The notes below the pieces were generated by a model. It was not told the origin of the DNA and searched no databases. It saw only the letters and a list, made by a program, of their open reading frames with translations. Source: an uncultured Acidobacteriota bacterium (GTDB lineage: Bacteria > Acidobacteriota > Thermoanaerobaculia > Multivoradales > Multivoraceae). Taken from it: 64,000 nucleotides of DNA. Each line of letters opens with the position of its first letter. Within the stretch, counting starts at the first letter, position 1. Made by a program: the position numbers and the translations under genes. The stretch covers positions 65,497-129,496 of the forward strand of contig CAWKPF010000002.1 of assembly GCA_963851415.1 (NCBI GenBank), written 5' to 3'. Below, piece by piece: positions 42,007 through 64,000 of this stretch.

Positions 42007-42034
42007 GTATGACATGTCATACTCGTATGACATG
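42007..42034. promoter_or_regulatory. candidate relBE operator: 16-bp perfect palindrome GTATGACATGTCATAC plus a third half-site GTATGACATG
   Basis: Read directly: palindrome at 42007-42022 and repeated half-site at 42025-42034. Both overlap the first two candidate ATGs of the antitoxin. Confidence 0.5.
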
Positions 42035-42256: not shown

Positions 42257-42506
42257 GCTCGACGAACGTGCCGTCAAGGAGCTGCGCAAGCTGGACCGTC
42301 AGGTGCAGCGCCGCATCCTCTCCTTCCTGCGCCAGCGCATCGCGATCGACCAAGACCCGCGGCGACTGGGGCAGGCGCTGAGCGGAACCGAGCTGTCCCT
42401 GTGGCGGTACCGAGTGGGCGACTATCGAGTGATCTGCCAGCTCGAGGATGAGACCGTCGTCGTCCTCGTGGTGCGCATCGGACATCGGCGTGAGGTCTAC
42501 CGCTAG
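42240..42506 (+). CDS. relE: RelE/ParE-family type II toxin
   Basis: 88 aa, TTG start. [30 protein letters not shown]...[35 protein letters not shown] is a textbook RelE/StbE pattern. Confidence 0.9.
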
Positions 42507-42547
42507 CGACAACGGCCGCTGACTTGCGTGCCGGACTGTCGCGAAGC

Positions 42548-45500: not shown

Positions 45501-47281
45501 GCTGCAAAGGCTAGCAGCGGCAGCGCGCCCCGCTCGCCCTCGACCTCGCCGAGGATCTCCTCGACCAGGTGATCGTCTTCGAACCGGTAGCCGTGCTTGA
45601 GCGCCGGCTGCACGACGGCACGTCGCAACGCGCTGCCCGAGAGCGGATTGAGCACGGTCAGGGCTTCGAAGATCGGCGTGAACGCCGGATACCGACCACA
45701 CTCGGCCAGGAAGTCGTCGCGCAACGACAAGAGAATCCGCACGTCGGCCTCGATCGACAGGCGACCGAGCAACTCGGCAAAGCGCTCCTGGACTTCGGGC
45801 GAGCTCTGGGTGAAGAGCTCTTCGAACTGGTCGATCACGAGAAGCGCGTGCTCGTGGTTGCCGCGCCAACGCTTCACCGCCGCCACGGCCTTGGCCGGAT
45901 CGTCGAAGCCGACCAGCTCGCGCACGGCATCGGTGTCTCCGGCGAGCTCGACGGCGAGCGCCTCGGCCAGCGCGGTGACCGGGCGCACTCCGGGTGTCGT
46001 GACCAGCACTCCCCAACCGTCGGGTCGGGCGGGCAGGACCCCGGCTCTCAGGAACGACGTCTTACCGGTGCCGGAGGGACCGATCAGACCGAGCACGTGG
46101 AGACGACGCAGCTTCTTCCACATCGCCTCGACTTCGAGCTCGCGGCCGAAGAAGTACTCGGCGTCGGCTTCGGTGAAGGAGGCGAGGCCGGGGTAGGGCG
46201 TGACGCCCTCTTCGATGGCGCGGGTGGTGGCCTCTTCGAGAGCCCGGGAGAGGACCGCGGCGCTGGCAGGACGGGCGTCCCGGTCGCCGGCGATGCACCG
46301 ACGCAGCACCGGGGCCCAGGGCGTCTTCGCCAGGCGCGGCGGAGTCTCTCGACAGCGCTGCCAGAACTGTCGCCGCTGCTCGGGCGAGCGCACCCCGCCC
46401 GACTCCACCATCTCGGCGAGCACCAGACCGGCGGCGTAGACGTCGGTGCGCGCGTCGAGCGGCTCGCCCTTCGACTGCTCGGGAGCCATGTAGGCAGGGG
46501 TCCCGGCAACGTCGCTCGCCTGCCCGACCAGCGCTCCGGCGATACCGAAGTCCATCACCACGACGCGACCGGCCCGGGTCAGCATGACGTTCTCGGGCTT
46601 CACGTCGCGATGCACGAGCCCGGCGGCGTGGATCGCTTCGAGACCGGCGAGCATCTGGGCGGCGAGGTCGCGTGCCTCGCTCAGATCGAGGGGGCTGCGC
46701 TGGGCGAGAAGCTGCTGCAGGGTTTCGCCGTCGATGTACTCCATGGAGACCAGCTCGTGTCCCTCCAACTCGACCAGATCGAACACCCGGCAGACGTTGG
46801 GCGAGACGACTTCGCGAGCGGTGCGCACCTCCTGGCGAAGGGTTTCGAGGGCCGGACGGTGCTGCAACAGGTCGGCGCGCAGTGCCTTGAGCGCGACATC
46901 GACGCGCAGCTTGAGGTCGAACGCTCGCCACACCTCACCCATGCCACCCGTGCCGAGGAGGGTGCGAATGCGGTATCGGCCACCGAGGATCTGGCCGCGC
47001 TCGAGCGCCTTGCGCGAGGAAGGGAGAGTGCCCGGCTCGGCATCACCCTGGTCTGCGTGGCCCTGTTCTGGGTCGCCCCGGTCTGGGTCGCCCCGGTCGG
47101 CTTCGATCTCGGCGAGGAGCGAGGGCTGCTCGAGACTCAACCGGGCCATGCACGCCAGGCACAGACCGGTGGCCCACGGCTCGTCACTGAGCGGGGTCCC
47201 GCAGTCGGGGCAGAGCGGCGCCTCGTCCGCTCTCGCCCTCCCCTCCAATCGCGGGGCTTCCCCTGTTGGCGTCTCTCCCAA
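42548..47281 (-). CDS. Ser/Thr protein kinase fused to a STAND-type P-loop NTPase, one TM helix and a C-terminal WD40-like beta-propeller region
   Basis: 1577 aa. CPDCG...CLAC ribbon (residues 24-43). Kinase motifs GTGGMGEVW, VALK, HRDVKPEN, DFGIA, GTPAYMAPE (about residues 97-350). PYPGLASFTEADAEYFFGRE + Walker A GPSGTGKTS + Walker B LLVIDQFEE. RKRRRRR + TM IAVAMAVAFLAATVLVVTGFW (44834-44893). WD40-type blades such as GHVGPVYSLDFSPDGLWLVSSGADGSVRIWPV. Confidence 0.9.
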   Translation of the reverse strand: MGETPTGEAPRLEGRARADEAPLCPDCGTPLSDEPWATGLCLACMARLSLEQPSLLAEIEADRGDPDRGDPEQGHADQGDAEPGTLPSSRKALERGQILGGRYRIRTLLGTGGMGEVWRAFDLKLRVDVALKALRADLLQHRPALETLRQEVRTAREVVSPNVCRVFDLVELEGHELVSMEYIDGETLQQLLAQRSPLDLSEARDLAAQMLAGLEAIHAAGLVHRDVKPENVMLTRAGRVVVMDFGIAGALVGQASDVAGTPAYMAPEQSKGEPLDARTDVYAAGLVLAEMVESGGVRSPEQRRQFWQRCRETPPRLAKTPWAPVLRRCIAGDRDARPASAAVLSRALEEATTRAIEEGVTPYPGLASFTEADAEYFFGRELEVEAMWKKLRRLHVLGLIGPSGTGKTSFLRAGVLPARPDGWGVLVTTPGVRPVTALAEALAVELAGDTDAVRELVGFDDPAKAVAAVKRWRGNHEHALLVIDQFEELFTQSSPEVQERFAELLGRLSIEADVRILLSLRDDFLAECGRYPAFTPIFEALTVLNPLSGSALRRAVVQPALKHGYRFEDDHLVEEILGEVEGERGALPLLAFAAAQLWEGRDRERGVLTRRTYEEIGGVAGALARHADATLEEIGEENVVVVRDFFRRLVTAQRTRATWDRDELLSAFEDREAASRVLNVLIDARLVTSYERQSEEEDAEPRHRVEIIHESLLRSWPRLVRWQVRDEDSAQLLDQLRQAASIWEDRGRPDDLLWTGKAFKEYELWREDYSGALSSTEAEFADAMVELSGRKRRRRRIAVAMAVAFLAATVLVVTGFWRRAVDAGRQVEANHLLSLGRSHLPSDPTEKDPTGALAYAMKRLELQDDPAVRRLVMDALWAGPLAIHVQAEHASGRSSEMSSSGTWLAGPVLAEDRLQGRRLYHRDGTTEVLPYPPDLVRELENDALGDMMITQAVPGRELMVDVYLRGFVVLSPPPQGRVLRWENLGTEAFFYVRSSEELVAIAVDGEWREISYWPLDGGMPRELGRLPAGPRAHSSSVAAIAVDDRVCVWQWESPQTGPTDCHDLPSEATGAFLSFDGQLVGSFDPEGRMRMWRRELGRASGEWSRALGRSHDRAFDATNTRWLAWPRGGAAFASVWNLDYPPEMEPLLFSRHQGATHHEVRWGAGGQWILGFTNIGGLTMWPAARRHPFVADGSTDTLSASFSPDGRSLSWGEGAFRGALRHLQRGHVTGTLSKLIQPYSGIRSVSWHPDGRRVMAGEGDGTTWFVDVVSGEARELPQTATARFSGRMVAMATPYPVAVSPDGRYAAGAGGPELLVWSLEAESLGAVDVRVLVPEEKERGPRGPFPPEPSFLGVHFTPDSRKIVASEWDAIRVWDLDDGTFEILGEGFVSQVSRDGRRVFATLGMKQEWGQEAGADPVRIYDLENGDYEVLPNHGVATVVALDPSESILASGDWQGVIRVGPITGEEPHLLLGHVGPVYSLDFSPDGLWLVSSGADGSVRIWPVPDVTKVPIHTLPQDDLLAFLKRLTNFRAVEDPESETGYSIDYDPFPGWADYPDWLPLAADAEEERPTSAGGSS
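47069..47098 (-). repeat. 15-nt tandem duplication inside the kinase gene (encodes DRGDP-DRGDP)
   Basis: Plus strand ttctgggtcgccccg / gtctgggtcgccccg, 14 of 15 identical. It lies in the linker between the zinc ribbon and the kinase domain and is absent from the pseudogene copy. Confidence 0.7.
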
Positions 47282-48246: not shown

Positions 48247-51202
48247 ATGAGCAGGGATCTCCATCGCTTCAGGACCGGGTTCGGCTCTTTGATTCTCTTC
48301 GTCGTGGCCGCGCTGGCGACGACACGGGGGGGCTTTGCACAGGCCGTGACGGGGAACGTCTACGGCACGGTGACCGACTCGGCGGGGCAATCGCTTCCCG
48401 GGGTCACCGTCACCATCGGTGGAATCGGAGCCGATCGCACTCAGTTCACCGACGCGCGGGGGCGCTTCCGTTTCCTGGGCCTCGACCCCGGAGAGTGGCA
48501 TCTCCGCGCTGAGCTCTCCGGCATGGGCTCGCTCGACTTTCCTGGGGTGGAGGTGCGCATCGGTCGCAACACGACGCTCCCGCTGGTGCTCCGACCGGCG
48601 ATGCAGGAAACGCTCACGGTCACTTCGGAGAGCCCCCTTCTGGACGAGCGCGAGCTCACCCAGGGCACCACGGTGACGCAGGTGGAGCTCGAACGGATTC
48701 CCACGGCACGCGATCCGTGGGCGATCGTGGGCCAGACGCCGGGCGTGCTGGTCGATCGCGTGAACGTGGGGGGAAGCGAGTCGGGTCAGCAGTCGAGCTT
48801 CCGGGCACAGGGGGTCGAGTCCCGTTCAGAACGACTGGCAGCTCGACGGAGTCCAGATCACCGATATGTATGGCCCAGGGGCCTCCTCGTCCTACTTCGA
48901 CTTCGACCAGTTCGCGGAGATGCAGTTCACCACCGGCGGCACCGACGTGACCAAGAACACGGCCGGCGTCGGAGTGAACCTGGTGACCAAGCGGGGCAGC
49001 AACGAGTTTCGCGGCTCGGCGCGATTCTTCAACACGAAAGCGCAGGGATACTTCGGAGGCTTCCTGCCTCAGGCACGAGTCAATGTCAACGAAGAGGACA
49101 TGGGTCCCGGACAGTCCCTCGACGACTACAAGGGCGCCCAGATCCGGGAGATCGAGGAGATGGGGTTCGAGGCCGGAGGCGCCCTGGTTCGCGATCGCGC
49201 CTGGCTGTGGGGCTCCTGGGGACAGAACGACATCCAACAGAACGCCGCGACGGGAACCGCCGACGACACCATTCTCGAGAACACTGCACTCAAGCTGAAC
49301 GCACAGTTCAGCCGCGCCAACAGCTTCGTCGCGTCATGGAACAACGGTGACAAGCAGAAATCCGGTCGCGAGGCCGGCAGCACCCGCCCCGACATCACCA
49401 GCTACAACCAGCGTGGCCCCTCCGCGATCTACCGCTTCGAAGATACGCACGTCTTCACCTCGAATCTGTTCGTCACGGGCACCTACTCTCTCAACGACCT
49501 CGGCTTCCAGCTGGCTGCGAAGGGCGGAGTCGGGCCCGACGCTCCAGAGTCGTGGCGCCGCAGCGACGGCGTGTGGCAGGAGAACTACATCAGCGGTAGC
49601 TCCACGTCTCCGGGCGACGAGATCAAGGTCGACTCGTCGTACTTCCTCAACACGGGGAACATCAACCACGAGCTGCGGGTCGGCGGCCGGTTCCGCCGGT
49701 CCGAGAACTCGAGTGTGTTCGCCTGGCCGGGGAAGGACGTCTTCACCTACAACACCACGAGCACCCACTTCGTGACCGCGAAGCGAGGCATCGGGACCCC
49801 GGTGCTCATGGAGTATTTTTCGCTCTGGGCACAGGACACCCTGAGCCTGGGGCGCTTCACGGTCAACGCCGGCTTGCGCTATGACGACCAGAAGGGGCGA
49901 AACCAGGCCGCCCGCGTGCCCGGCAACCCGATGGTGCCAAACGTGCTACCCGAGATCGAGTACGCGGGGGCGGCGCCCGACTTCACCTGGACGAGCCTGG
50001 CGCCCCGACTGGGCGTGACCTATGCCCTCGGCAGCGAGCGTGACACCTTGATCCGAGCCAGCCTGGCCCAGTTCGCGGATGCTCTCGGCTCGCGCTACAT
50101 CGATCGCACGAACCCGGCCGGCAACGTCTACGCCTACTTCGCGCTCCCCTACGTCGACGGCCCGTACACCGGAGACGGCAGCGAGCTCGACGATCCGGCG
50201 CGGGTCGACTTCGCCAACGGCTTCGACCCGGCAGACCCCTCGTCGCTCGATGACCCCGACCGCACCGACCCGGGATTCGATCCGCCGCTCACCACCGAGC
50301 TCGTGATCGGCGTCGAGCACGCGGTGCTCCCCGAGTTCGTGGTCGGACTCACGCTCACGGCACGCAACGTCGACAAGATCGAGGAGCTGAGGCCGATCAT
50401 CCGCAACAGCGACGGCACCGAGCGCACCGTGACCGCAGAGGACTACGTGCTCGACGGGAGCCTGAGCGGCACGATCGACGACCCGAACGCCGGCGGCCCA
50501 GCGAGGAGCTACGACGTGCCGGTCTACGCCCTGCGAGAGGACTTCCAGTTCACCGGCGGTGAGCTCCTGCTCAACGGCGCGCGCGAGCGGGACTACCTGG
50601 GCGCGGCGCTCACCTTTACCAAGCGTTTGGCGAATCGGTGGATGATTCGCGGGTATCTGAACTACGGCAGCGCCGAGTGGAAGGTCCCGGCCGAGTATCT
50701 GGCTCAGAACGACCCCAACAGAGACCAGGACGGCGGGGATCGGGATGGATCTCTGTTCGCCACTCGCTCGGGTGCCGGCGGCAGAGGGGAGCGGTTCCTG
50801 CAGTCGACGTGGACGTCGAACGTGACCGGCCTCTACCAGATCGCTCCCGATCGGCCGTGGGGATTCAACCTGTCGGGAGCGCTCACGGCGCGAGAGGGCT
50901 ATCCCATCCCCTACTTCAACGAGACCACGACCAGCGACGGCCTGTTCCGCCGCATCAGTGTGGTCGGCGACTTCGACGACTACCGGCTACCCACCATCGC
51001 CACCCTGGATCTGAGGTTCGAGAAGGAGTTCAACCTGACCGGCCCGGTCAACATGACCTTCGGGATCGACGCGTTCAACATCACCAACACAGGGACGGCG
51101 ATGTCACGGCGCCGCGACCTGAGCGTGTCGAGTGCGTACTGGCTCGAGGACAACATCTCGCCAAGGATCTGGCGGCTCGGGGTGCGTTTGAGCTGGAAGT
51201 GA
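48247..51202 (+). pseudogene. TonB-dependent receptor with carboxypeptidase-regulatory-like N-domain, carrying a single frameshift near 48810-48814
   Basis: Track ORFs 48133..49350 (signal peptide, VTGNVYGTVTDSAGQSLPGVTV...) and 48866..51202 (barrel, ends ...RLGVRLSWK) are one gene. The +1 frame reads ...GSSPVQNDWQLDGVQITDMYGPG... directly after ...SSFRAQG. The shift sits at a G5 run. Confidence 0.8.
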
Positions 51203-52959: not shown

Positions 52960-54315
52960 TCAGCGCGAGCTCTTCAGCTTTTCCCCGAGTCGGCGTGCGG
53001 TGATCTCCACACCGCGACCGTGGATGACGTCTTCGTGATCGCCGGGAATGTCGACCAGAGTGATGTCCTTGGCAAGTCCCCTCCAGCCCAGTTCGGGGAA
53101 CTGGTCCTTGAACCAGCTTTCTGCGCCGTGGCGGAAGAGAATGACGGGAGCCGACAGTGCCTGCGGGCGATACCGTCGAAAGGCTCTCAGACAGCTCCGT
53201 TCCACGTAGCTGGGCCGCAGCGACTCCGGCAGCGGGATCCGCAGTGCGGTTCGGCCCCGGATCGCCAGACGCGTGGGAAGAGTCCGCATGGCGGCAGTCT
53301 GATCCCGCACGAGCGACAGCACGTTACCCAGCACGCTGCGGCCGAAGTAGACCAGGCGCTCCGCCACACCGAGTTTCGCGGTATTGGCGCGATGCCGACC
53401 GGCTCGCTCCTCGAGCGTCTCGTGCCAGGGGAAGAGGGTGTCGAACATCGCCAGAATCTCGACGCCCTCCCCGGCATCGGTCAGCTGGCGGGCAATCTCG
53501 AAAGCGACCACCCCGCCGAAGGAATAGCCGCCAAGACGATAGGGCCCCTTCGGTTGAAGCGACCGAATCTCCGCCACATGACGGGCGGCGAGTTGCTCGA
53601 TGCTCTCGGGAAAGGGCTCGCTGCCATCGGCACCCGGAGGCGCCAGCCCGTACACCGGCTGGTCCGAGCCGAGCTCTCGGGCCAGATCGTAGTAGTGGAT
53701 CGTCCGACCTGCCACGCAATGGGCACAGAACAGTGGAGGCTGTGAGCCCCGCGGTTGAATCTCGACCAGCAGCGAGTCTCGGCCGACGGCCGGCGCCCCT
53801 TGCAGCACCTCGGCGAGCCTCGCCACCGTGGGTCGCTGGAACACCGTATCCACCTGGATCGTCTGCCCGAGTCGCTCTCGAATCACGACCACGAGTCGCA
53901 GAGCTCGCAGAGAATGGCCGCCCAGGTCGAAGAAGTCATCGTGGATTCCGACAGGCTCGACGCCGAGCAGCTCGGAGAAGATGGTCACGAGGGTCTCTTC
54001 CAGGGCGTCGCGGGGCGCGCTGTCCTTCGAGGTCGCGCGTTCGGTGGCGGGCTCGGGAAGCGCGTCGCGATCGATCTTGCCGTTGACCGTTCGCGGCATC
54101 GCGTCCAACGTCACGAACATCGCCGGCACCATGGGCTCGGGCAACCGCTCTCGGAGGTGGCGGCGCAACTCCTCCGGCGTTGGAGCCGATCGGGAGTCGG
54201 GAACGACGTAGGCGACGAGCTTGGTCTCGCTTCTCACGCCGAGCTCGTCGAGACGCCGGGCGAGTGCCTCCCGCTGTGGCTCACCGAGTCGTTCGATTCT
54301 CGCTCGCAGTTCCAT
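52960..54315 (-). CDS. NRPS fragment: A-domain C-terminal part (A9-A10), PCP and thioesterase
   Basis: ATG 54315 (MELRAR...) overlaps the upstream stop (TGATG). KLVAYVVPD, LPEPMVPAMF (A9), NGKIDR (A10), FFDLGGHSLRAL (PCP), GYSFGGVVAFE (TE GxSxG). Confidence 0.8.
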   Translation of the reverse strand: MELRARIERLGEPQREALARRLDELGVRSETKLVAYVVPDSRSAPTPEELRRHLRERLPEPMVPAMFVTLDAMPRTVNGKIDRDALPEPATERATSKDSAPRDALEETLVTIFSELLGVEPVGIHDDFFDLGGHSLRALRLVVVIRERLGQTIQVDTVFQRPTVARLAEVLQGAPAVGRDSLLVEIQPRGSQPPLFCAHCVAGRTIHYYDLARELGSDQPVYGLAPPGADGSEPFPESIEQLAARHVAEIRSLQPKGPYRLGGYSFGGVVAFEIARQLTDAGEGVEILAMFDTLFPWHETLEERAGRHRANTAKLGVAERLVYFGRSVLGNVLSLVRDQTAAMRTLPTRLAIRGRTALRIPLPESLRPSYVERSCLRAFRRYRPQALSAPVILFRHGAESWFKDQFPELGWRGLAKDITLVDIPGDHEDVIHGRGVEITARRLGEKLKSSR

Positions 54316-57300
54316 CAGCGAATGGCCTTCACGATGACCATCGAGTCCGCCCACCAGGCATCCTCAGTGTCCTCGGGGATCTCCACAGGCTGCACCCGAA
54401 GCGAGAGCGATGAAAAATGCTCCAGCAGGGCCCGTTGGTGTCGACGGCTGAGGGAGTCGATCTCGGTGGACAGATAGCTGAAGACCCCTCCGGGGCGAAG
54501 GTGCCTCGCGGCAATGACAAAGAAGTGCTCCGCAAAGGTGATTCCCTCCACCATGTAGCGCAGGAACTCTTCCTCGTCGAGCGGAACGGCGTGAAAGAAG
54601 ATGCCATCGTACAGGCCGAGTCGATCTTCGACATCCTGCCACCGGCCCTCGAAGAGACGGATGTCGCGCTCGGCGAACCGTTCCCGAAACGGCCGGAAGA
54701 ACCGCTCCACACAGGACTGGTTTGCCTCGACCACAGAGTGGGATCGCACGCCGAGCTCCTGGATGAGTGCAGCGGACACGCCCCGACCGAAGCCGACTTC
54801 GAGAACGTCGCCGTGGTCCTGCGTGACGTCTTCGGCCATCGCTCTCATCACCGGGATCTGCCAGTCCTCCATGATCTCCTGCTCGGTCGGATCGTTGTGC
54901 TCCCGGTCGGGGACGGTCCCGTCGAAATCGCCGGTGGCGCCCCGCACGAACCGACGGGCGGTCCGATCGAGGTGCAGCAGATCGGCCGTCAGCTCGTCGA
55001 GGCTCTGCTCGAGGAGCCAGTTGCGCTGCGCGTCACGAGGCGGGCGAACGAAGTCTTCCTCATCGATACGAAGGGTGAGCTCGAACGCCTCTCGCCGGCG
55101 AGTGAACGAGGTCGCGGAGTCCCCGACTGCTCGGAGGAGACGCTCGACGGTATCAGTGTCGAGTGTCGAGAGACGCTCTGCGAGACCACCCGCCTCACGC
55201 GCGACGACGACGGCCTCGACGACACCTGAATGGGAACAGAGTGCCGCCTCGATCTCGCTGGGCTCGATCCGGTGTCCTCGAATCTTGAGCTGTTGGTCCA
55301 CGCGTCCCAGGAACTCCAGCTCGCCGCACTCGAGGAACCGAACGCGGTCTCCCGTGCGGAACAGTCGCCCTCCCTCGGCAAAGGGGTTGGTGAGAAAGGC
55401 GGGGTCGTCACGACCCCAGTACCCGCGCGCGATACCGGTACCTCCGAGATAGAGCTCTCCCGGCGCCCCGGCAGGCGTGGGCCTCCTCTCCTCGTCGAGC
55501 ACGTAGGCCAGACAGTCCGCGATGGGGCGGCCGATGGGAACGCGACCGCCCCCCTCGAGCTCCGTACAGTCGCAGACAGTGCTCCAGACCGTGGCCTCGG
55601 TGGGCCCGTACTCATTGAAGAGGCGGCAGTCGGGAAGCACCGCCCGGTGGGCCTGCACCACTCCCGGAGGGCAGGCTTCGCCCGCGACGATCACGACCCT
55701 GAGGGAGCGAAGGCTCGGATCGAGAATCTCTCGATAGAGAGCTGGAATGGACAGCAGGTGAGACACCTCGTGCCGCTGGATGATCTCTCGAATCTCGTGC
55801 GGATCCGGAAGATGTGTGCCCGGCGGCAGGCAAAGGGTCGCCCCTTCCCCCAGGGTCCAGAAGATCCCGGCCACGGAGCTATCGAAGGCGAACGAGGACA
55901 AGAGCAGGAACGAACGCAGCGATTCGCAGCCGTAGTACTGGGTTCGAGCCTGGGTCGAGTGCCAGAGATTCTCATGAGTGACCATCACACCCCGGGGCTC
56001 CCCGGTCGAGCCCGAGGTGTAGAGGATGTAGGCGAGGTCGCCGGGGTCCGGGGTTGTGGGAAGGTCGTCGCACTCCTCTGTGAAGTCCTCGACATAGAGA
56101 ATGTTGTCTGCCCCGAGACCCGCGCCGAGCGCCCGGGTGGTGAGCAAGAACTTCGACTGGGTGTCTGCGAGAATCTGCCGGGCCCGTTCGACCGGATAGG
56201 CCGGATCCAGAGGGACGTAGGCGCCTCCGGCCTTGAGCACACCGAGAACGGCGAGCAGCATGGAGGGCGAACGGGGCACGAAGATGCCGACGGGCTCCCC
56301 CCGCCCGACCCCCAGGCGCACCAGCTCGCGTGCGAGCGAGTTGGCGCGCCCGTTCAGCTGGCGGTAGCTCCACGCTTCCTCAGCCGCCACGATCGCGACT
56401 CTGTCCGGCGTCCGGCCCGCGACGCTCTCGAACCCGCGGTGCCAGAGCCTCTCCCCTCCAGCTTGCAGTGCCGGCCCCCGCACGGCTTGCGGAGCGGCCA
56501 TCTGGATCGTTTCCAGGGGAGAGTCCGGGCGGGTTGCGAGCTGGTCGAGCGCAGTGCCGAAGTGGTCAGCCATGCGCTCGATTGCGGGCTCGCCGAAGCG
56601 AGCGCGGTCGAAGATGAACGAGACGACCAGTCGGTCTCCCGGCTGAACCACTACTGCCAGAGGAAGGTTGGTGTGGGCATCGAAACGCTCGTCCTCGATC
56701 GCTAGCGTGGAGGGTGGCTGTTCAGGCACCCTGTAGTTGGCATAGGAGAACAGACTGTCGAAGAGCGGGCGACCGGCTCTCCCGATCCAGCTCTGGATCT
56801 TCCGTAGCGAGGTGTGCTCGTAGCGGCGGCCGTGAGCCTGCCGCGCCTGCAGGTCACGCAACCACTCCCCCGCCGCGACACCCGAGGGCACCTGCGCTCG
56901 ACAAGGAGTGGTGTTCATGAACAGACCCACCATCTCCTCGGCGCCGTCGAGTCCCGAAGGGCGTCCCGCGGTCGTCGCACCACAGAGAATGTCGTCACGC
57001 CCGGTGTAGCGCGCGACCAGAACGCACCACGCTCCGAGCAGCAAGGTGCTCAGGGTGATGCGCTCACGCCGAGCCGCTGCGATCAACGGGGCGCTCGGCA
57101 CCAGCAGGTCGCGGCGAGCATGACCCTGCCCGGAGCCCGCTGGAAGATCGAACGGAGTGGGCTCGGCGTCCGCCAGCTCCTGTTGCCAGTAGCGCTTGGA
57201 TTCCTCTTCGTCGGAGTGGGCCGCGAGCCAGTCGAGGAAATCCGAATACGCTCTTGGCTCGGCCAGCTCATCTCCACGGTAGCACTCGAACACCTCGCGT

Positions 57301-58352
57301 AGCACCACAAGTCGAGACCAGCCGTCGAGAATCATGTGGTGATAGCTCCACAGGAACCGCCACCGATTCTCGCCAGTTCGGGCCAGGGCCAACCGCAAGA
57401 GTGGCGCCTTCTCCAGATCGAAGCCACGCTCCTTGTCTGCCTCGCTCCAGGCCACGATCTCGTCCTCCTCGCTGCGTCCCCGCCAGTCCAGGAGCTCGAG
57501 TGTGGGAGTCGCGTCGGACTCTACCAACTGTAGAGGTGTTTCCCGATCGTGCCAGAGAAAGCGAAGGCGAAGGGCATCGTGGCGTCGCGTCACGGTTCGC
57601 CATGCGCCTTCGAGTCGCGCCGGATCGAGCTCGCCCTCGATCCGACAGGAGTACTGCTCGTGGTAGACGCCGGCACCCTCGCTCTCGAGGCTGTGAAACA
57701 GCATCCCTTCCTGGAGCGGCGAAAGCGGCCTTTCTCGCGGCGCGCAAGGAGCGGCGATCGTGGTTGGACCGGTAGTGCGCTCCGCCGCCGAGGCAAGCCG
57801 TTCCACAGTTGGATGTTCGAACAGGTCAGAGGGCTCCACGGAGATCCCTGCCTCGCGCGCCCGGGCGACGATTCGAATCGCGGTGATGGAGTCGCCGCCC
57901 AGCTCGAAGAAATCGTCGTGGATTCCGACTCGCTGCAACCCGAGCAGCTCGCGCCAGATCTCCGCCAGTTTCTCCTGCGCGGGTGTGCAGGGCTCGGCGA
58001 AGGTCGAGGAGGCCTCGGGCTTCGGCAGGGACCCGCGATCGACCTTTCCCCTCGAGGTGAGAGGAAGCTCGTCGAGCCGAACGAACACGGAGGGAACCAT
58101 GAAATCCGGCAGTCTGCCAGCCACCCGAGAGCGGAGATCGTCGGCTGCGATCTCACGATCGGCGACGTAGTAGGCGGTGAGCCCGGCCCGCTTCTCGTGG
58201 GCCCGTTCCGGCTGGTATCCAATCTCGTTCAGCCGAGCCCGCACGGTGGCCGAGTCGATTTCGTCATCGAGCTCGGCGAGCGCCTCGTCACGCTCCTTGT
58301 GGCCGAGTCGAACGTCCCAGCTGTAGGGAAGCGCGTAGTTGTGGAAACCCAC
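54315..58352 (-). CDS. NRPS: end of module 1 (A9-A10, PCP), then module 2 C domain and A domain (A1-A8) followed by a GAMT-like methyltransferase domain
   Basis: LPDFMVPSVF / RGKVDR, FFELGGDSITAI, PLSPLQEGMLFH + HHMILDGWS (C), LAYILYTSGSTGEPRGV, NEYGPTEATV, LKIRGHRIEPSEIE (A8), then ...MEDWQIPVMRAMAE...VLEVGFGRGVSA... to the stop. The N-terminal 45 residues continue the PP-loop domain of the upstream ORF. Confidence 0.85.
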   Translation of the reverse strand: MGFHNYALPYSWDVRLGHKERDEALAELDDEIDSATVRARLNEIGYQPERAHEKRAGLTAYYVADREIAADDLRSRVAGRLPDFMVPSVFVRLDELPLTSRGKVDRGSLPKPEASSTFAEPCTPAQEKLAEIWRELLGLQRVGIHDDFFELGGDSITAIRIVARAREAGISVEPSDLFEHPTVERLASAAERTTGPTTIAAPCAPRERPLSPLQEGMLFHSLESEGAGVYHEQYSCRIEGELDPARLEGAWRTVTRRHDALRLRFLWHDRETPLQLVESDATPTLELLDWRGRSEEDEIVAWSEADKERGFDLEKAPLLRLALARTGENRWRFLWSYHHMILDGWSRLVVLREVFECYRGDELAEPRAYSDFLDWLAAHSDEEESKRYWQQELADAEPTPFDLPAGSGQGHARRDLLVPSAPLIAAARRERITLSTLLLGAWCVLVARYTGRDDILCGATTAGRPSGLDGAEEMVGLFMNTTPCRAQVPSGVAAGEWLRDLQARQAHGRRYEHTSLRKIQSWIGRAGRPLFDSLFSYANYRVPEQPPSTLAIEDERFDAHTNLPLAVVVQPGDRLVVSFIFDRARFGEPAIERMADHFGTALDQLATRPDSPLETIQMAAPQAVRGPALQAGGERLWHRGFESVAGRTPDRVAIVAAEEAWSYRQLNGRANSLARELVRLGVGRGEPVGIFVPRSPSMLLAVLGVLKAGGAYVPLDPAYPVERARQILADTQSKFLLTTRALGAGLGADNILYVEDFTEECDDLPTTPDPGDLAYILYTSGSTGEPRGVMVTHENLWHSTQARTQYYGCESLRSFLLLSSFAFDSSVAGIFWTLGEGATLCLPPGTHLPDPHEIREIIQRHEVSHLLSIPALYREILDPSLRSLRVVIVAGEACPPGVVQAHRAVLPDCRLFNEYGPTEATVWSTVCDCTELEGGGRVPIGRPIADCLAYVLDEERRPTPAGAPGELYLGGTGIARGYWGRDDPAFLTNPFAEGGRLFRTGDRVRFLECGELEFLGRVDQQLKIRGHRIEPSEIEAALCSHSGVVEAVVVAREAGGLAERLSTLDTDTVERLLRAVGDSATSFTRRREAFELTLRIDEEDFVRPPRDAQRNWLLEQSLDELTADLLHLDRTARRFVRGATGDFDGTVPDREHNDPTEQEIMEDWQIPVMRAMAEDVTQDHGDVLEVGFGRGVSAALIQELGVRSHSVVEANQSCVERFFRPFRERFAERDIRLFEGRWQDVEDRLGLYDGIFFHAVPLDEEEFLRYMVEGITFAEHFFVIAARHLRPGGVFSYLSTEIDSLSRRHQRALLEHFSSLSLRVQPVEIPEDTEDAWWADSMVIVKAIR

Positions 58353-61300
58353 GTTCCTGGCGATGCACCCAGATCCCCGCGTCGTTGATCAGGCAATTGG
58401 TGGAGCGGCCGGTATCCTCGGGCCGGATCCAGGGGGCACGCTCGTTCAGAGAACGACAGCACCTCCTCGAGGCTCACGTCGCAGTAGCGATAGAAGTCGA
58501 CGTACGAGGTCTCTTCGAACACCGAGTCGTCGCGGAACATCGATACGTCGAGGTTCCGGGACACCGCATCGTCCATGCGGTGATAAGCCTTGCGCGCCTC
58601 GAGCACCGTACGGTCGATCTCCGATGGGTCGCGCAGACCGATGCGGAAGAAGTCCGCGAGTCGGGTCTCGAAGATCTGGCCACGAGAGAGCCCCGTCACG
58701 ATGACACGCAGACCGCGCTCGCGAGCGAGCGAGACGGCGAGGGTATAGATGGTCTTGAAGCAGCCCTGGCAGACATTGCTGAAGCGCGCGAGGCTGTCCG
58801 CGAAGATGGTGTTCATCGCCGGAGTGCTGCCGAAGACGAGCTCGAGGCCGAGATCCTCGGTGGCACGCCGGATATTCTCCTTGGCACCGTCGGAGATGAA
58901 GCCGTTGTCGAGCGTGAAGACGAGAGGGGTCCGCCCGAGGGCAACGACCTGGTAGAGGGCATAGGTGCTGTCCTTGCCTCCGCTCAGGAGCATGATGCAA
59001 TCCTGGCCCCTGGCGTTTGGTCGACACTTCTCGTCGAGCTCGGACGCGAGCTCCTCCATCGTGCCGAAGTAGCTGCGAGCCTCTGCCTCGTAGGTCGAGA
59101 AGTCGCGACAGATATTGCACACCCCGTCCGAGTCGAGCAACGCTTCAGGATGGCGCGAGGTGAGCCCACAGCGAACACAAAAGCGCTCCTCCTCCCCACC
59201 GACGAGATCGACGACGCACTCCTCGATCTCGGGCATCTCGAGAAGGATCCGTTCGATCTCTGCCGGCTCGACCCGCGCCCCTCGCACCTTGAGTTGACGA
59301 TCGGCCCGACCGAGGAACTCGAGACAACCGTCGGGCCGCTGGCGGCAGAGATCGCCGGTGCGGTAGCGACCGTGGAATCGGTCACCTCCACGGTAGCCCT
59401 CGGCGACGCCCGGCCCTTCGACCACCAATTCGCCCTCCTCCCCCGGCGCTGCATCGACCGTCGCTCGAGTGCCATCGATGGCAAATCCGATCGGCACGGA
59501 CGCAGCCGTGTCGCGTTCGGGGTCGAAACGGTACACGACGCAGCCCACCGTGGCTTCTGTCGGTCCGTACTCGTTGAAGATCGTGATCCGACCTTCGGAG
59601 CGGCCCACGATCGCCCCAGCGAGCTCGGAGCGTAGGTCCTCACCGCCGACGACGAGCAGACTCAGTCTCTGAGGCATGGGCTCGCGCGAGCGAAGGATCG
59701 CCAGGTGAGAAGGAGTGAGCTTCACGACGTCCACTTCGTCGCGCTCGAAGACGTCGACGATCGAGAGGTCCGGCCCCCTCTGGGGCTCCGGATAGACGAC
59801 GACGCGTCCGCCAGATACCAACGGCACGAAGAGTGACGTCACCGTCAGATCGAAAGCGACAGACGAATGCAGGGCAAAGGCGAGGGGGCCATCCGAAGCA
59901 TAGGCGCGATGTGCCCAACCCACATAGTGGGCGAGGGCCCGGTGTGAGACCTCGACCCCCTTGGGACGCCCGGTCGACCCCGAGGTGTAGATGACGTAGG
60001 CGAGATCGTCTTTCGAGACGCGGTGCGGCGCACCCGACTCGTCGCCCCCCGTCTGGGTATCGTCGTCGAAGACCGCACAGGCGCCCGAGTCCTCGATCAG
60101 CCCGTTGCTTCGCTCTTCAGGATGACGTGGGTCGAGGGGAAGATAGGCTGCTCCTGCACCGAGCACTCCGAGGATCGCCGCCACCAGATCCGGAGTGCGC
60201 CGCATCCGGACTGCCACTACTGCGCCGGGGCCCGCACCCTGGCGACGTGCCTCCGCGGTCCACTGGGCCATGCGCGAAGCGAGCTCCCGGTAGCTCCATC
60301 GCTCTCCGGCGCCACTCAGAGCAACGGCCTCCGGAGTCGCCTCGGCCTGTCGCAGAAACATGTCGATTACCGTCGGGGCGGGCTCGATGGGCTGGTCGAG
60401 ATCGTCGAGCATGACGTCCAGGATGGCGAGATACTCTTGTGCGATCTGGTCGCGCCGACTCCGCGGGAATGAGTCTTCGTTCAGATCGAAGGACAGGGTC
60501 GTCTGTCCCAGCCCACCGAAGTCGTGTACCTGGAGTCGCAGGCTGTGGGCACGATCGCCATAGCCGGGATGCACCCACTCTGGCTCTGCCCTGGAACCGG
60601 CAATCTGTGGGATCCCGGCGGTGATGTAGTTGAGCACCACGTCGTAGGGCCGGGAGTGGACGACGTGGCTGCTTCCTGGCCGGGCGTTCAGAAGCATCCT
60701 CTGCGATTCGTCCCGAGTCTTGACGAAGAGAGAGCGGAAGGTCTCGCCCTCTTCGATTCGCGCATGCATCGGGAAGATCTCGATGAACAGGCCGATCGTC
60801 TCCTTGAAGGCCGCGGTGGGACGATTGTGTGCTGGAGCGAGGAACGCAGGGCTCCGATTGCCCGCCACACGGTAGAGCAAGGCGAAGAGGGCAGTTGCGT
60901 AGAGTTGAAAGCGAGCCAGGTCGGACGTGAGCCCACGGATTCCGTCGGACGAAGCGAGCTCTGCGAGTCGGCGTTCGCGCTCTTCGCCGAGAGCGTACGA
61001 GCTTCTGACCGTTCGGGAGCCACGACGCGAGGGTCTGTGCCCGTAGAAGACACAGGGCGCGAAAGGCTCTTCGAGCTTCTCTCGCCAGTAGGCGACGGCC
61101 TTCTCATGGCGAGGGCTCATCACCTGGGACCGCTCCCAGTCGACGTAGTCTTCGAACTGAGGCAGAGGCTCGGTCTCGGATAGGGTGTTCTCGAGGACGC
61201 GCCGGTAAAGCTCCTCGAGTCGGCCGAAGAGGATGCCACAAGACCAGCCGTCGGTCACCAGATGATGCTGGTTCAAGAAGAATCGGGCAGTTCCGTCACC

Positions 61301-61669
61301 CAGTCTCACCAGAACCGCATCGTAGAGACACTTCGCGAGGTCGAACTGGCGTGCGCTTCGAGTGGCGACCCACTTCGTGTACGCCTGGGCATCCGCGAGC
61401 TCGATCTCCTCCAACGAGGCAGGCACCTGCGAGAGCACCTCGCGGTACGGGACACCTACGCTCTCGAAGATCACCGTACGCAGAGCGTCACTGCCGGCGA
61501 CCAGCGCATCGAAGGCCGCCCGCAATGCCTCGACATCGATCGATCCCTCGCACACCTGCGACAAGGCCATGTTGTAGAGCGGCGCGTCGGGATCCAACTT
61601 CTGCCCGGTCCAAAGCAGAAACTGACCGCGCGACAGGTTGGACCGATCGAACGGAGAACGCTCGTCCAT
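58229..61669 (-). CDS. NRPS module 1: N-terminal C domain and A domain (A1-A8) followed by an embedded PP-loop ATP-pyrophosphatase (AANH) domain; the 3' end is out of frame
   Basis: SRGQFLLW, HHLVTDGWS (C), LAYVIYTSGSTGRPKGV, NEYGPTEATV, LKVRGARVEPAEIE (A8), then CVRCG...CNIC, LLSGGKDS, CQGC. After ...LSFSERA (about 58440) the reading continues in other frames into ORF 54315..58352, so the last 69 codons of this track ORF look like off-frame readthrough. Confidence 0.85.
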   Translation of the reverse strand: MDERSPFDRSNLSRGQFLLWTGQKLDPDAPLYNMALSQVCEGSIDVEALRAAFDALVAGSDALRTVIFESVGVPYREVLSQVPASLEEIELADAQAYTKWVATRSARQFDLAKCLYDAVLVRLGDGTARFFLNQHHLVTDGWSCGILFGRLEELYRRVLENTLSETEPLPQFEDYVDWERSQVMSPRHEKAVAYWREKLEEPFAPCVFYGHRPSRRGSRTVRSSYALGEERERRLAELASSDGIRGLTSDLARFQLYATALFALLYRVAGNRSPAFLAPAHNRPTAAFKETIGLFIEIFPMHARIEEGETFRSLFVKTRDESQRMLLNARPGSSHVVHSRPYDVVLNYITAGIPQIAGSRAEPEWVHPGYGDRAHSLRLQVHDFGGLGQTTLSFDLNEDSFPRSRRDQIAQEYLAILDVMLDDLDQPIEPAPTVIDMFLRQAEATPEAVALSGAGERWSYRELASRMAQWTAEARRQGAGPGAVVAVRMRRTPDLVAAILGVLGAGAAYLPLDPRHPEERSNGLIEDSGACAVFDDDTQTGGDESGAPHRVSKDDLAYVIYTSGSTGRPKGVEVSHRALAHYVGWAHRAYASDGPLAFALHSSVAFDLTVTSLFVPLVSGGRVVVYPEPQRGPDLSIVDVFERDEVDVVKLTPSHLAILRSREPMPQRLSLLVVGGEDLRSELAGAIVGRSEGRITIFNEYGPTEATVGCVVYRFDPERDTAASVPIGFAIDGTRATVDAAPGEEGELVVEGPGVAEGYRGGDRFHGRYRTGDLCRQRPDGCLEFLGRADRQLKVRGARVEPAEIERILLEMPEIEECVVDLVGGEEERFCVRCGLTSRHPEALLDSDGVCNICRDFSTYEAEARSYFGTMEELASELDEKCRPNARGQDCIMLLSGGKDSTYALYQVVALGRTPLVFTLDNGFISDGAKENIRRATEDLGLELVFGSTPAMNTIFADSLARFSNVCQGCFKTIYTLAVSLARERGLRVIVTGLSRGQIFETRLADFFRIGLRDPSEIDRTVLEARKAYHRMDDAVSRNLDVSMFRDDSVFEETSYVDFYRYCDVSLEEVLSFSERACPLDPARGYRPLHQLPDQRRGDLGASPGTWVSTTTRFPTAGTFDSATRSVTRRSPSSMTKSTRPPCGLG

Positions 61670-61670
61670 C

Positions 61671-61913
61671 TCAGTCCTTGCGCCGCTCGACGTAGCGGGC
61701 GATGGAGGACACGCTCCGAAAGTTCTCGATGGTCACATCCTCTGCGGGCACGACGATGCCGAATTCTTCCTGCAGAAAGGTGACCAGGAGCATGACTCCG
61801 ATCGAGTCGATCGGATGATGGGTGAGGAGGTCGTCGTCCGCGGCGGGTATCGCACTCGGCTCACCGAAGATCTCGACGGCGAGGAACTGGGCTATGGTTT
61901 CTGTCGTTGTCAC
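61671..61913 (-). CDS. free-standing acyl/peptidyl carrier protein
   Basis: 80 aa. The phosphopantetheine site context is LTHHPIDSIGVMLLVTFL. Its stop lies 1 nt before the NRPS start, and it overlaps the upstream adenylating-enzyme gene by 4 nt. Confidence 0.8.
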   Translation of the reverse strand: MTTTETIAQFLAVEIFGEPSAIPAADDDLLTHHPIDSIGVMLLVTFLQEEFGIVVPAEDVTIENFRSVSSIARYVERRKD

Positions 61914-63484
61914 GATCGGCCGTCTCCATCCTCGCTCAGGGCGGGGTAATCGATCTTCCCGGAAGACAGGCGCGGGAACGATTCCACGAGCTCGATGCGT
62001 CGAGGAACCGCGTGCGGCGGGACGAGAGACCGGAGATGCGCGATGACCTCCCGCGGTTCGAGCATCCTGCCGGCTCGCACCTTGACTGCCGCCTCGATGG
62101 CGCGGCTGTCACCGTCGGGCAGCGCGAACGCGGCGGCCTCCTCGACCGCGGGATGGGCGAGCAGGGCGTGCTCGATCGCTTCGAGCTCGATCCTGTAGCC
62201 CCGGATCTTGACCTGCCGATCCAATCGTCCTACGAACCGGAAGCCATCTCGCTCGAGCACCTCGACCAGGTCCCCGGTCCGGTAGAAGACCTCCTCTCGC
62301 CCGCCATCACGACGGCGCCGGTGGAAAACCTTCTCGTTGAGATCCGGCCGGTTCCAGTAGCCGGCCATAAGGGTGGGGCCACGCACCAGAAGCTCGCCCA
62401 CGGCGCCGATGCCGACCGGCGCACCGTGGTCGTCGACAACGATGCACTCCATCCCCGATGCTGCCTCGCCGATGGGGATCGGGGCTTCGTCGTCTGCGAT
62501 CGGTGGGACGTCGTAGCAGGTACAGCCGTTGGTTTCGGCCGGGCCGTACATGTTGTTGAAGCGAACATCGGGGAGTAGTTCCATGAGGTGGCGCAGGTGC
62601 TTGGTCGGGGTGCTTTCTCCGCCGTAGATGATCCAGCGTAGCTCGCTGAGGTCCTGCTTCTCGAGGGCACCGCGCGTGAGCAGCTGAACGAGGGCGAAGG
62701 GCACGGTGAAGAACACGCTGATGCGCTCCTGCGAAAGGAGGGCCGCGTAGCTCGCCGGCATCTTCGTGTGGGCCTCGGGGACCACCACCGTCGCTGCGCC
62801 GGCCAGGGCGGCAGCGAAATAGTCGAAGATCGACATGTCGAAGTGGAGCGGCGCCTGGTTGGTCAGTCGATCTTCCGGACGGAGGCCATACCTCGTGCAT
62901 GCCCAGCGGCAGAAGGCGAGGCAACTCTCGTGAGTGTGCATGATGCCCTTGGGCCGCCCCGTCGAGCCAGAGGTGTAGATGATGTAGGCGAGGTCATCAC
63001 CGATGACGTCGGGATCCGGCCCAGAATCTTCGGCCGCCGCATGGGCGTCGCTCCACGATTCGGTTCGAACGTCGAGCTCCCCTGGCGCGAGACCCACGAC
63101 CTGCGTCAGCGCGACCCCCTCTTGTTCGAGCACCGCCGCGACCGTGTCCGCCAGTTTCGGGGCGCTCACGAGATGGCGAATACCGCAGTCTCTCAGCACC
63201 TCGGCCAGCTCGGACACCGGGGCAGCGGGATTGAGCGGAACGTAGGCGGCACCCGCACGCAGCACGCCGTGGACGCCGATGCCGGTTTCGGCACTCTTGT
63301 GGAGCAGTATCCCAACGCGGTCGCCACGTCGAACGCCACCGTCGACGAGCAGTCGCGCAAGTCCGTTGGCTTCCCGGGCGAGATCTGACCACGAGAGAGT
63401 GCGCTGCGCGAAACAGACGGCGTCGCGCCCCGAGTGGTGCTCGACGTTGTGACGCAAGACGTCGGGAAGCGTGAGTCTCGTCAT
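61910..63484 (-). CDS. free-standing adenylate-forming enzyme (A-domain/DltA-like)
   Basis: 524 aa. LAYIIYTSGSTGRPKGI, FDMSIFDYF, NMYGPAETNG, YRTGDLV, GRLDRQVKIRGYRIELEAIE, SSGKIDY. Confidence 0.85.
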   Translation of the reverse strand: MTRLTLPDVLRHNVEHHSGRDAVCFAQRTLSWSDLAREANGLARLLVDGGVRRGDRVGILLHKSAETGIGVHGVLRAGAAYVPLNPAAPVSELAEVLRDCGIRHLVSAPKLADTVAAVLEQEGVALTQVVGLAPGELDVRTESWSDAHAAAEDSGPDPDVIGDDLAYIIYTSGSTGRPKGIMHTHESCLAFCRWACTRYGLRPEDRLTNQAPLHFDMSIFDYFAAALAGAATVVVPEAHTKMPASYAALLSQERISVFFTVPFALVQLLTRGALEKQDLSELRWIIYGGESTPTKHLRHLMELLPDVRFNNMYGPAETNGCTCYDVPPIADDEAPIPIGEAASGMECIVVDDHGAPVGIGAVGELLVRGPTLMAGYWNRPDLNEKVFHRRRRDGGREEVFYRTGDLVEVLERDGFRFVGRLDRQVKIRGYRIELEAIEHALLAHPAVEEAAAFALPDGDSRAIEAAVKVRAGRMLEPREVIAHLRSLVPPHAVPRRIELVESFPRLSSGKIDYPALSEDGDGRS

Positions 63485-63486
63485 GG

Positions 63487-64000
63487 TCAGAGTCCGAGTA
63501 GACGTGCGATCGTCAGGCGCTGGATGTCGGAGGTGCCACCCCAGAGCACGGTTCCGATCGAGTCCCGAAGGTCACGCTCACATCCGGTTTCCGTCAGGTA
63601 CCCACGTCCGCCGTGGATTCGCACGGTATCGAGGCCGGACTCGAGGGCGCTCTCGGCAACGAACAGCTTGGCCGCGGCTGCCTCGAGATGGGCCGAGTGC
63701 CCGTTCATCCGGAGAGCTGCGACACGATAGACCAGTAGACGTGCGGCTTCGAGTCGCACCTTCATGTCGGCGATCCGGTTCGACACCGACTGAAACTTGC
63801 CGATCGTCTGCCCGAACTGTCGACGCTGGCGCGCAAACCGAACCGCCGAGAGCAACTCTCGCTCCATCATTCCGACGTGGCTGGCCAGCATGCAGCTGCG
63901 TTCCCAGGCCAGCGAATCCGAAGCGATCGCGAGACCACTCCCTTCCGGTCCGATTCGGCCGTCGTCCGCGGCCAGACAATCCTCGAATGCCAGGGCACCG
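63487..64000 (-). CDS. acyl-CoA dehydrogenase family protein (C-terminal part; gene runs off the window)
   Basis: The frame stays open from 63487 to the window end. It reads ...GSGLAIASDSLAWERSCMLASHVGMMERELLSAVRFARQRRQFGQTIGKFQSV...RIHGGRGY...GGTSDIQRLTIARLLGL, typical of the ACAD C-terminal helical domain. Confidence 0.8.
   Translation of the reverse strand, partial: GALAFEDCLAADDGRIGPEGSGLAIASDSLAWERSCMLASHVGMMERELLSAVRFARQRRQFGQTIGKFQSVSNRIADMKVRLEAARLLVYRVAALRMNGHSAHLEAAAAKLFVAESALESGLDTVRIHGGRGYLTETGCERDLRDSIGTVLWGGTSDIQRLTIARLLGL

Follow-up and report, generated by a model that had tools for sequence, protein, structure and literature searches.

Nonribosomal peptide synthetase (NRPS) adenylation (A) domains that carry a methyltransferase (M) domain between motifs a8 and a9 are textbook enzymes. 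They are exemplified by the A4-M domain of TioS, in which one contiguous polypeptide adenylates an amino acid, loads it and methylates the tethered residue (Lundy et al. 2020, PMC8341866). The M domains known to be embedded in A domains perform backbone N-methylation or side-chain O- or S-methylation only, and the text of the census of interrupted A domains makes no mention of guanidino or of guanidinoacetate N-methyltransferase (GAMT) (PMC8341866). A gene break after such an M domain is represented by one published case, corallorazine, where Crz1 ends in A2-nMT (nMT, N-methyltransferase) with a stop after A8 and M, and Crz2 opens with A9/A10; glycine activation in vitro required the two proteins together, and the authors, who called the split 'unique', knew of no earlier account of an A domain that is split yet functional (PMC11342130). 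The present analysis concerns an M domain encoded on the minus strand of a 64,000-nucleotide (nt) stretch, hereafter the window, from an uncultured Acidobacteriota bacterium (contig CAWKPF010000002.1, positions 65,497 to 129,496). It lies in a small two-module NRPS system at window positions 52960-63484. We consider it reasonably likely that this GAMT-like domain, placed after A8 of a naturally split, histidine-activating A domain, methylates the side chain of carrier-bound histidine.

The locus shares with Crz1/Crz2 the overall order C-A-T-C-A-M followed, on a second protein, by (A9/A10)-T-release (C, condensation; T, thiolation or carrier domain), a lipodipeptide-type assembly line, and acyl-CoA dehydrogenase and acyl-activating genes nearby. 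It differs in that the corallorazine enzyme activates glycine, its M domain is described as a conventional backbone nMT, and release proceeds through a reductase rather than a thioesterase. The resemblance to conventional a8-a9 M domains lies in the position after A8 and in the expected sequence of adenylation, loading and methylation of a tethered residue. The methyltransferase family is a different one, and the window-type polypeptide always ends after M, whereas the known conventional examples are contiguous.

The M domain forms the C-terminal end of a C-A-M polypeptide translated from 54315-58352 on the minus strand, and the GAMT-like peptide quoted in an initial annotation of the window is present in this translation. 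A8 reads LKIRGHRIEPSEIE, and the terminal part reads MEDWQIPVMRAMAE...GDVLEVGFGRGVSAALIQE...YDGIFFHAVPLDEEEF...LRPGGVFSYLS...VIVKAIR-stop, with motif I as VLEVGFGRG and a family-specific motif, TEIDSLSRRHQR. A phmmer search with the last 311 residues against 177,635 distinct PDB sequences returned human GAMT (3orh) at E 1.6e-16 and rat GAMT (1xcj, 1khh and 1p1b) at about 4e-14 to 6e-14. The GAMT alignment spans residues 124-261 of the query, and no non-GAMT sequence in that set was significant. An AlphaFold2 model of M, built on 18 homologues, has a mean predicted local distance difference test score of 80, rising above 94 in the catalytic core. The five best PDB matches of this model in Foldseek are all GAMT, with E from 3e-14 to 1e-12 and target template-modelling scores of 0.68-0.77; spermidine synthases and small O-methyltransferases follow at about 5e-8, roughly six orders of magnitude worse, and no NRPS M-domain structure occurs among the top 50 PDB matches.

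Scanned with a Pfam library that lacks the PF27704 model, the last 311 residues gave only generic, sub-threshold Methyltransf_25/23 matches (E 0.05), and NCBIfam likewise gave sub-threshold generic methyltransferase matches only. Homologues at 55-60% identity carry the precomputed Pfam assignment PF27704, 'GuanidinoAc_N-MeTrfase'. The window M domain is a member of this GAMT-like methyltransferase family. The initial annotation had placed the domain with GAMT and apart from conventional NRPS M domains, and had proposed a profile search as a check; both placements are borne out, with no significant match to Methyltransf_11/12/23/25 and best matches other than the standard NRPS N- or O-methyltransferases. 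The same annotation had described a domain of 187 residues behind a linker of about 120 residues, and these limits have to be redrawn. Alignment with stand-alone homologues of 262 amino acids (aa) begins at 'R..FEL.L....F.RPPR.AQRNWLL', 75 residues ahead of MEDWQ, so most of the supposed linker is a conserved N-terminal extension, modelled by AlphaFold2 as a beta-hairpin and a long helix. The complete domain is a class I methyltransferase of about 262-264 aa.

Compared with GAMT (EC 2.1.1.2; PDB 3orh, 1xcj, 1khh), the window domain shares the fold, the family and the motifs VLEVGFG, (I/V)ExN, GxW(E/Q)DV and (F/Y)DG(I)xx, and adds the conserved extension of about 75 aa and an EIDS(L/F)SRxHQR motif. 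GAMT is a free enzyme acting on guanidinoacetate, whereas the window M domain resides in an NRPS module and its predicted acceptor is carrier-bound histidine. Across 272 family sequences, the S-adenosylmethionine (SAM)-binding positions are near-invariant, namely the E/G/G of motif I, the acidic residue after strand 2, GxW and Asp129. VLEVGFGRG, VVEAN, GRWQDV and YDGIFF, all present in the window domain, fall in invariant or near-invariant columns. Near-invariance of the SAM-binding residues over more than 250 sequences argues for catalysis.

A1-A8 lie before M and A9-A10 after it, which is the a8-a9 arrangement of interrupted A domains, here distributed over two genes. The initial annotation had embedded M within the module-2 A domain; its position after A8 holds, whereas the polypeptide stops after M and A9/A10 are encoded by the next gene, so that the single contiguous polypeptide of classical interrupted A domains is not found here. 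The next gene (52960-54315, minus strand, 451 aa) encodes in order the A9/A10 subdomain (Asub), a carrier and a thioesterase (TE), and the A of the terminating TGA is the first base of its ATG (54313-54315; cgcTGATGgaa).

Conservation of this break was assessed in 80 non-redundant related loci taken from species-representative genomes, with domains mapped by tblastn using the window's own domains. The loci come from Verrucomicrobiota, Planctomycetota, Acidobacteriota, Calditrichota, Chloroflexota, Bacteroidota, Cyanobacteria, Gemmatimonadota, Krumholzibacteriota, Nitrospirota and Gammaproteobacteria (more than 10 phyla in all), and the closest match to the window among GTDB representatives has 60% identity. 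Cultured carriers of such a locus include Dokdonia pacifica DSM 25597, Winogradskyella sp. R77965, Aurantibacter crassamenti, Stieleria sedimenti and Flavisolibacter longurius. In 37 of the 80 loci M and the A core form one protein; in 36, M has a 262-aa gene of its own, flanked by the A-core and Asub-T genes, and 7 are uninformative upstream of M. In each of the 69 informative loci a stop closes the reading frame of M and the gene that comes next opens with the A9/A10 subdomain; fusion of M to Asub occurs in 0 of 80. The junctions between M and Asub comprise 35 ATGA overlaps, 7 one-nucleotide overlaps of the window type and, in most others, gaps of 0-36 nt, and they occur in all three relative frames. 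The wider family shows the same polarity: a search of 5.8 billion proteins yielded 1183 relatives carrying PF27704, HMMER over 1.84 billion cluster representatives gave 1016 matches at E<1e-3 (142 at E<1e-30), and in multidomain matches M always closes the polypeptide, as with residues 999-1262 of a protein of 1262 residues or 3278-3546 of one of 3546.

A sequencing error or programmed frameshift behind an otherwise contiguous A domain could be suspected from the two apparent frame errors in module 1 of the same window and from the start of the next gene in a different frame with a one-base overlap. Such an origin is extremely improbable. The stop recurs in every informative locus, in independent assemblies that include complete genomes; the next gene has a proper ATG, M stands free in the 36 loci mentioned above, and the representative proteins all end with M. 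A conserved stop combined with differing spacings and frames practically rules out both error and frameshift, and the split marks a gene boundary that is conserved and translationally coupled. One possible reason for an obligatory split is topological. The last strand of the GAMT fold (…SMVVVKA) lies inside the sheet and well away from the N-terminus; as an idea, this geometry would prevent insertion as a simple loop. The first approximately 25 residues of the Asub-T-TE protein (MELRARIERLGEPQREALARRLDEL; window 54240-54315, minus strand) show a '..RI..LS..QR.LLA..L' pattern that is semi-conserved in 69 homologues and precedes the LVAY strand. This helix-like N-terminus may be a docking helix that helps the two parts of the A domain to reassemble.

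The Stachelhaus code describes the nine residues lining the A-domain pocket and was extracted here from an alignment anchored on the A2 motifs of the window. The module-2 code is DSALIAEVW, and the Lys of NGKIDR, encoded by the next gene, completes it as the tenth residue. Exactly or with one conservative substitution, DSALIAEVW is present in 74 of 75 A domains interrupted by M. DSALIAEVWK is listed among histidine-activating domains (PMC12283262), and together with this nearly single code the listing ties M to one amino acid, histidine, across more than 10 phyla.

The predicted active site follows the A-domain code. Residue equivalences were read from a HMMER alignment to rat GAMT, and two residues associated with GAMT activity are changed in the window, where Glu45 becomes Gln and the base Asp134 becomes His. 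According to PMC12842229, which cites Komoto et al. 2004, Asp134 is the catalytic base of GAMT and deprotonates the guanidino nitrogen before methyl transfer. Among the 272 family sequences, the Glu45 column holds Gln in 208 and Glu in the subfamily coupled to arginine-like codes, while the Asp134 column holds His in 195 and Asp in 61; the resulting pairs are Gln/His (190), Glu/Asp (47), Gln/Asp (11) and His/Gln (5). Gln/His domains accompany a histidine code in 53 of 59 proteins, the remaining six having gapped, unreadable codes, and the swapped His/Gln domains do so in 4/4. Glu/Asp and Gln/Asp domains are found beside D[VAT]E[DNE][IV]G[AS][IV][TGS]-type codes (25 and 6 proteins), such as DVENVGAIG, DVEDIGAIS, DVEEIGVIT and DAADVGAIT. 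These fit the arginine consensus D-(A/V)-E-D-(I/V/L)-G-A-(V/I)-(T/D)-K given in PMC12283262.

An independent set of 80 loci (L085-L164), fetched with a Glu/Asp member, shows the same coupling. It contains 77 Glu/Asp domains, 47 of them with a readable A code, mostly of the acidic-pocket, arginine-like kind with a few other types; none of these 47 codes is a histidine code, and the two Gln/His loci in the set both have one. The sources include Nitrospira (among them Ca. N. defluvii), Acidobacteriota, Streptomyces, Actinoplanes, Allokutzneria and Nostoc, and the Glu/Asp domains display the identical split, A-M on one protein and Asub-T on the next. The two subfamilies are cleanly told apart by no more than six alignment columns, four of which correspond to GAMT Glu42, Glu45, Met70 and Asp134. 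Since the active-site pair covaries with A-domain specificity, the catalytic centre of M should face the side chain rather than the alpha-amino group that all residues share. The covariation suggests that the side chain is methylated. For the Gln/His domain of the window, the most likely reaction is N-methylation of the histidine imidazole, and members of the Glu/Asp subfamily are most likely on-line arginine guanidino methyltransferases.

The Glu/Asp sister subfamily is common in Nitrospira, Acidobacteriota and actinomycetes (Streptomyces, Actinoplanes, Allokutzneria), an example being the Candidatus Nitrospira defluvii locus L117 (FP929003, 2051573-2068373). Yeast and plant Rmt2 is a protein arginine delta-N-methyltransferase with a GAMT-like domain that methylates the internal nitrogen of a side-chain N-C=N unit, acting on a ribosomal protein. 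By analogy, its functional counterpart would be the arginine-coupled Glu/Asp subfamily and not the Gln/His subfamily of the window. The swapped arrangement, with His in place of Glu45 and Gln in place of Asp134, is seen in the metagenomic proteins P0005, P0135, P0144, P0156 and P0163 and is coupled to the histidine code; these variants may methylate the other imidazole nitrogen.

The proposed mechanism would begin with association of the C-A-M and Asub-T-TE proteins, which would rebuild the A domain. The rebuilt domain would adenylate L-histidine and load it onto the downstream carrier, where M would methylate the side chain, most likely at an imidazole nitrogen. The N-C=N unit of imidazole is the cyclic counterpart of the guanidine or amidine unit, and a Gln/His pair would here take the place of the Glu45/Asp134 pair with which GAMT holds and deprotonates the guanidino nitrogen. 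The second condensation domain would then join the acyl-(modified Asn) chain of module 1 to methylhistidine, and the thioesterase would free the lipodipeptide. The analysis establishes the family of M, its insertion site, the conservation of the split, the histidine code and the covariation of the active-site pair with A-domain specificity. From these we infer that histidine is the methyl acceptor, that a ring nitrogen and not the alpha-amine is methylated, that this happens on the carrier, and what is released.

Several points weigh against imidazole methylation. No known product was found for any family member, and methylation itself is predicted from sequence, as are the histidine assignment of the Stachelhaus code and the placement of Gln and His at the SAM methyl group, the latter by alignment. 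The pairing of GAMT Glu45 with the guanidino group was reportedly described by Komoto and colleagues in 2004. The two frame changes in module 1, described below, reflect either sequence or assembly errors or a pseudogenised synthetase. The a8-a9 architecture is also compatible with alpha-amino methylation, the usual job of M domains at this site. A backbone N-methyltransferase acting on the alpha-amino group of carrier-bound histidine before condensation would share its insertion site with the known backbone N-methylating domains (PMC8949500; PMC8341866), and the M domain of split corallorazine Crz1 is itself described as such an enzyme. We nevertheless regard backbone methylation, the main rival reading, as unlikely. 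Backbone M domains span many A specificities, whereas in 74 of 75 loci the clade of the window has one and the same code; the amino acid in the catalytic-base column tracks the side-chain class (His with histidine codes, Asp with arginine-like codes), which is unexpected for an alpha-amine acceptor; and the GAMT fold belongs to enzymes for planar N-C=N nitrogens.

Imidazole methylation also has to be set against other chemistry, or none: C-methylation of the imidazole, O-methylation of beta-hydroxyhistidine or of a carboxylate, or a structural or docking role. Gln and His side chains could also bind oxygen functions, and PhyH-type dioxygenase genes occur in 6 related loci. Most loci, and the visible part of the window, lack hydroxylase genes, N-methylation is the only activity known for the GAMT family, and the near-invariant SAM-binding residues speak against a non-catalytic part, which together make these possibilities quite improbable. 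The positions of the features discussed are compiled in Table 1.

Table 1. Features of the two-module NRPS locus and adjoining genes, in window coordinates.
Feature	Position	Strand	Evidence
GAMT-like SAM-dependent methyltransferase (M)	54318..55109	-	PDB phmmer, Foldseek, PF27704 homologues, 262-aa stand-alone homologues
First part of small C-terminal A subdomain after A8 (EAALCSHSGVVEAVVVARE...) and linker to M	55110..55250	-	Translation, alignment
Module-2 adenylation core, A1-A8, code DSALIAEVW (predicted His)	55251..56432	-	Pfam AMP-binding E 5e-87, code extraction
Module-2 condensation domain (HHMILDG)	56493..57734	-	Pfam Condensation E 1.5e-78
Gln codon at GAMT Glu45 position (MEDWQIPVM vs MERWETPYM)	54858..54860	-	Alignment to GAMT, translation
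His codon at GAMT Asp134 position (YDGIFFHAVPL vs FDGILYDTYPL)	54591..54593	-	Alignment to GAMT, translation
TGA stop ending the C-A-M polypeptide	54315..54317	-	Sequence; stop after M in 69/69 informative loci
Start of next gene: rest of module-2 A subdomain, A9 (LPEPMVP), A10 (NGKIDR, catalytic Lys)	54031..54315	-	Translation, Pfam AMP-binding_C, 69 homologues
Module-2 thiolation (carrier) domain, GGHS	53806..53997	-	Pfam PP-binding E 6e-16
Thioesterase (GYSFGG), chain release	52981..53739	-	Pfam Thioesterase E 7e-32
Module-1 T domain	57789-57974	-	Pfam
Module 1: starter-type C, Asn-coded A (DLTKVGEVG) with PP-loop insertion, A9/A10	58023..61669	-	Pfam, code, frame analysis
PP-loop/alpha-ANH domain of ~330 aa (SGGKDS, CxxC...CxxC) in module-1 A	~58203-59179	-	NCBIfam WbuX TIGR03573 E 1e-22
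Stand-alone adenylating enzyme, 524 aa	61910..63484	-	Pfam AMP-binding and AMP-binding_C, NCBIfam TIGR01733
Acyl-CoA dehydrogenase, cut by window end	63487..64000	-	Pfam, tblastn vs conserved accessory families

Module 1 carries a tailoring domain of its own. Its PP-loop insertion scores below the family cut-off against the WbuX amidotransferase and weakly matches the structure of an N-acetyl sugar amidotransferase. In 26 loci an insertion of this type always lies in an A domain with the asparagine code DLTK[IV]GEV[GA], and in 24 related loci the module (C, A, insertion, Asub, T) forms one open reading frame (ORF). The closest described counterparts are albicidin AlbIV, which combines an asparagine code with a 342-aa alpha-ANH insertion and converts Asn to beta-cyanoalanine, and the cystobactamid AMDH domain, which has the same code and insertion and forms iso-Asn. 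The likeness rests on the code (DLTKIGEVGK in albicidin, DLTK[IV]GEVG here), an insertion of about 340 aa of the alpha-ANH/PP-loop type, and SGGKD. The difference from AlbIV is that the window insertion sits in an in-line, elongation-type lipodipeptide module and not in a stand-alone A-T of a para-aminobenzoic acid oligomer pathway. Amidine formation by module 1 was considered and is less likely than a nitrile or iso-Asn, given the asparagine code and the alpha-ANH insertion as in AlbIV and AMDH.

This comparison bears on the substrate first suggested for M. The initial annotation had proposed a guanidino- or amidino-bearing residue and connected it with amidine chemistry in module 1, naming the module-2 specificity prediction as a check. 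N-methylation of this kind, on an arginine-like residue of module 2 or on a module-1 amidine, would suit the homology of M to GAMT, the pairing of the Glu/Asp sister subfamily with arginine-like codes and the score of the insertion against WbuX, an acetamidino-forming amidotransferase family. For the window it is very unlikely. The module-2 code is that of histidine (DSALIAEVW(K)), Gln and His replace GAMT Glu45 and Asp134, the asparagine code and insertion of module 1 match the albicidin/cystobactamid dehydratase/aminomutase type, and M is present in 55 of the 80 related loci where the module-1-type insertion is lacking. The two tailoring steps therefore behave as independent cassettes, and the proposed connection with module 1 falls away. 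The guanidino idea does fit the Glu/Asp sister subfamily with its arginine-like codes.

The frame changes lie in the module-1 insertion, just before A9/A10 (window 58340-58460, minus strand). Both are +1 changes, about 100 nt apart, at short homopolymer runs near GCCCCCTGG (~58440) and GGGTTTCCACAAC (~58348). Five homologous loci read through the corresponding region in one uninterrupted ORF.

In the open-access literature, which was the scope of our search so that a report in a subscription journal is possible, we found no GAMT-family M domain in an NRPS, no strict coupling of an M domain to histidine (or arginine) modules through a two-residue signature, and no description of a universal split. 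Two candidate precedents were set aside: PA1216, a methyltransferase from a Pseudomonas aeruginosa NRPS cluster, is unrelated in motifs and architecture, and a mention of GAMT in a paper on animal alkaloids is irrelevant to NRPS M domains. The wider generalization is more tentative. GAMT-like domains may constitute an overlooked, phylum-spanning NRPS class that N-methylates nitrogen-rich side chains on the carrier. Specificity would be set by the two active-site residues, Gln/His domains acting on imidazole and Glu/Asp domains on guanidine, always in an A domain split into two or three pieces, with an acyl-(cyanoalanyl or iso-asparaginyl)-N-methylhistidine as a possible product of the window.

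Side-chain N-methylation by an A-embedded domain falls outside the catalogued types of interrupted A domain. N-methylhistidine and N-methylarginine formed during assembly would widen the choice of building blocks open to genome mining and engineering. A two-residue signature paired with A specificity provides a simple, directly testable rule. The conserved gene break means that naturally split A domains are common, a rule for a whole family in more than 10 phyla, in contrast to the single case reported in 2024 and called 'unique', and it marks the position after a8 and an insert as a tolerated cut site for splitting NRPS modules. Current labels such as 'guanidinoacetate N-methyltransferase' or generic class I methyltransferase mask an NRPS function in several hundred species. 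If the reading is true, the HupE/UreJ-type, TonB-receptor and ornithine cyclodeaminase (OCD) genes found beside such synthetases in other phyla hint at a new, metal-binding type of lipopeptide.

The genes recurrently linked to the synthetases with histidine-coupled M domains are acyl-CoA dehydrogenase (36 loci), a HupE/UreJ_2 membrane protein (33), Sfp-type phosphopantetheinyl transferase (PPTase; 23), OCD/mu-crystallin (21) and TonB-dependent receptors (10). Of these, the dehydrogenase alone is visible within the 64,000 nt of the window. As a set, these linked genes hint at a metal-related lipopeptide. The 524-aa acyl- or aminoacyl-activating enzyme probably performs acyl activation for lipo-initiation; its designation as a fatty acyl-AMP ligase was dropped, as NCBIfam scores it as a generic amino-acid-adenylation-type domain. 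A compact and conserved operon occurs in Bacteroidota (Flavobacteriaceae and others; L039, L043, L055, L057, L060, L062-L068, L071, L072, L076, L079-L081), with OCD/mu-crystallin, HupE/UreJ_2, separate C-A, M, Asub-T(-T) and C-T-TE genes, PPTase and, in some cases, PhyH. There the A domain is spread over three genes and the C-T-TE module is without an A domain of its own, and the transporter genes suggest a metal-related function.

The remainder of the window has the look of an Acidobacteriota chromosome. A 778-aa ORF (48866-51202, plus strand) separates the NRPS locus from the kinase genes; it matches nothing in Pfam and may be spurious or encode an uncharacterised protein. The kinase genes are two large STAND NTPase/Ser-Thr kinase (WD40) genes at 39004-47281. 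Two ADOP-family duplicated permeases (TIGR03434) lie at 16883-19612 and 31328-34102 (minus strand), one of them beside a PadR-containing ORF, and an Mrp antiporter and PPK2 are also encoded.

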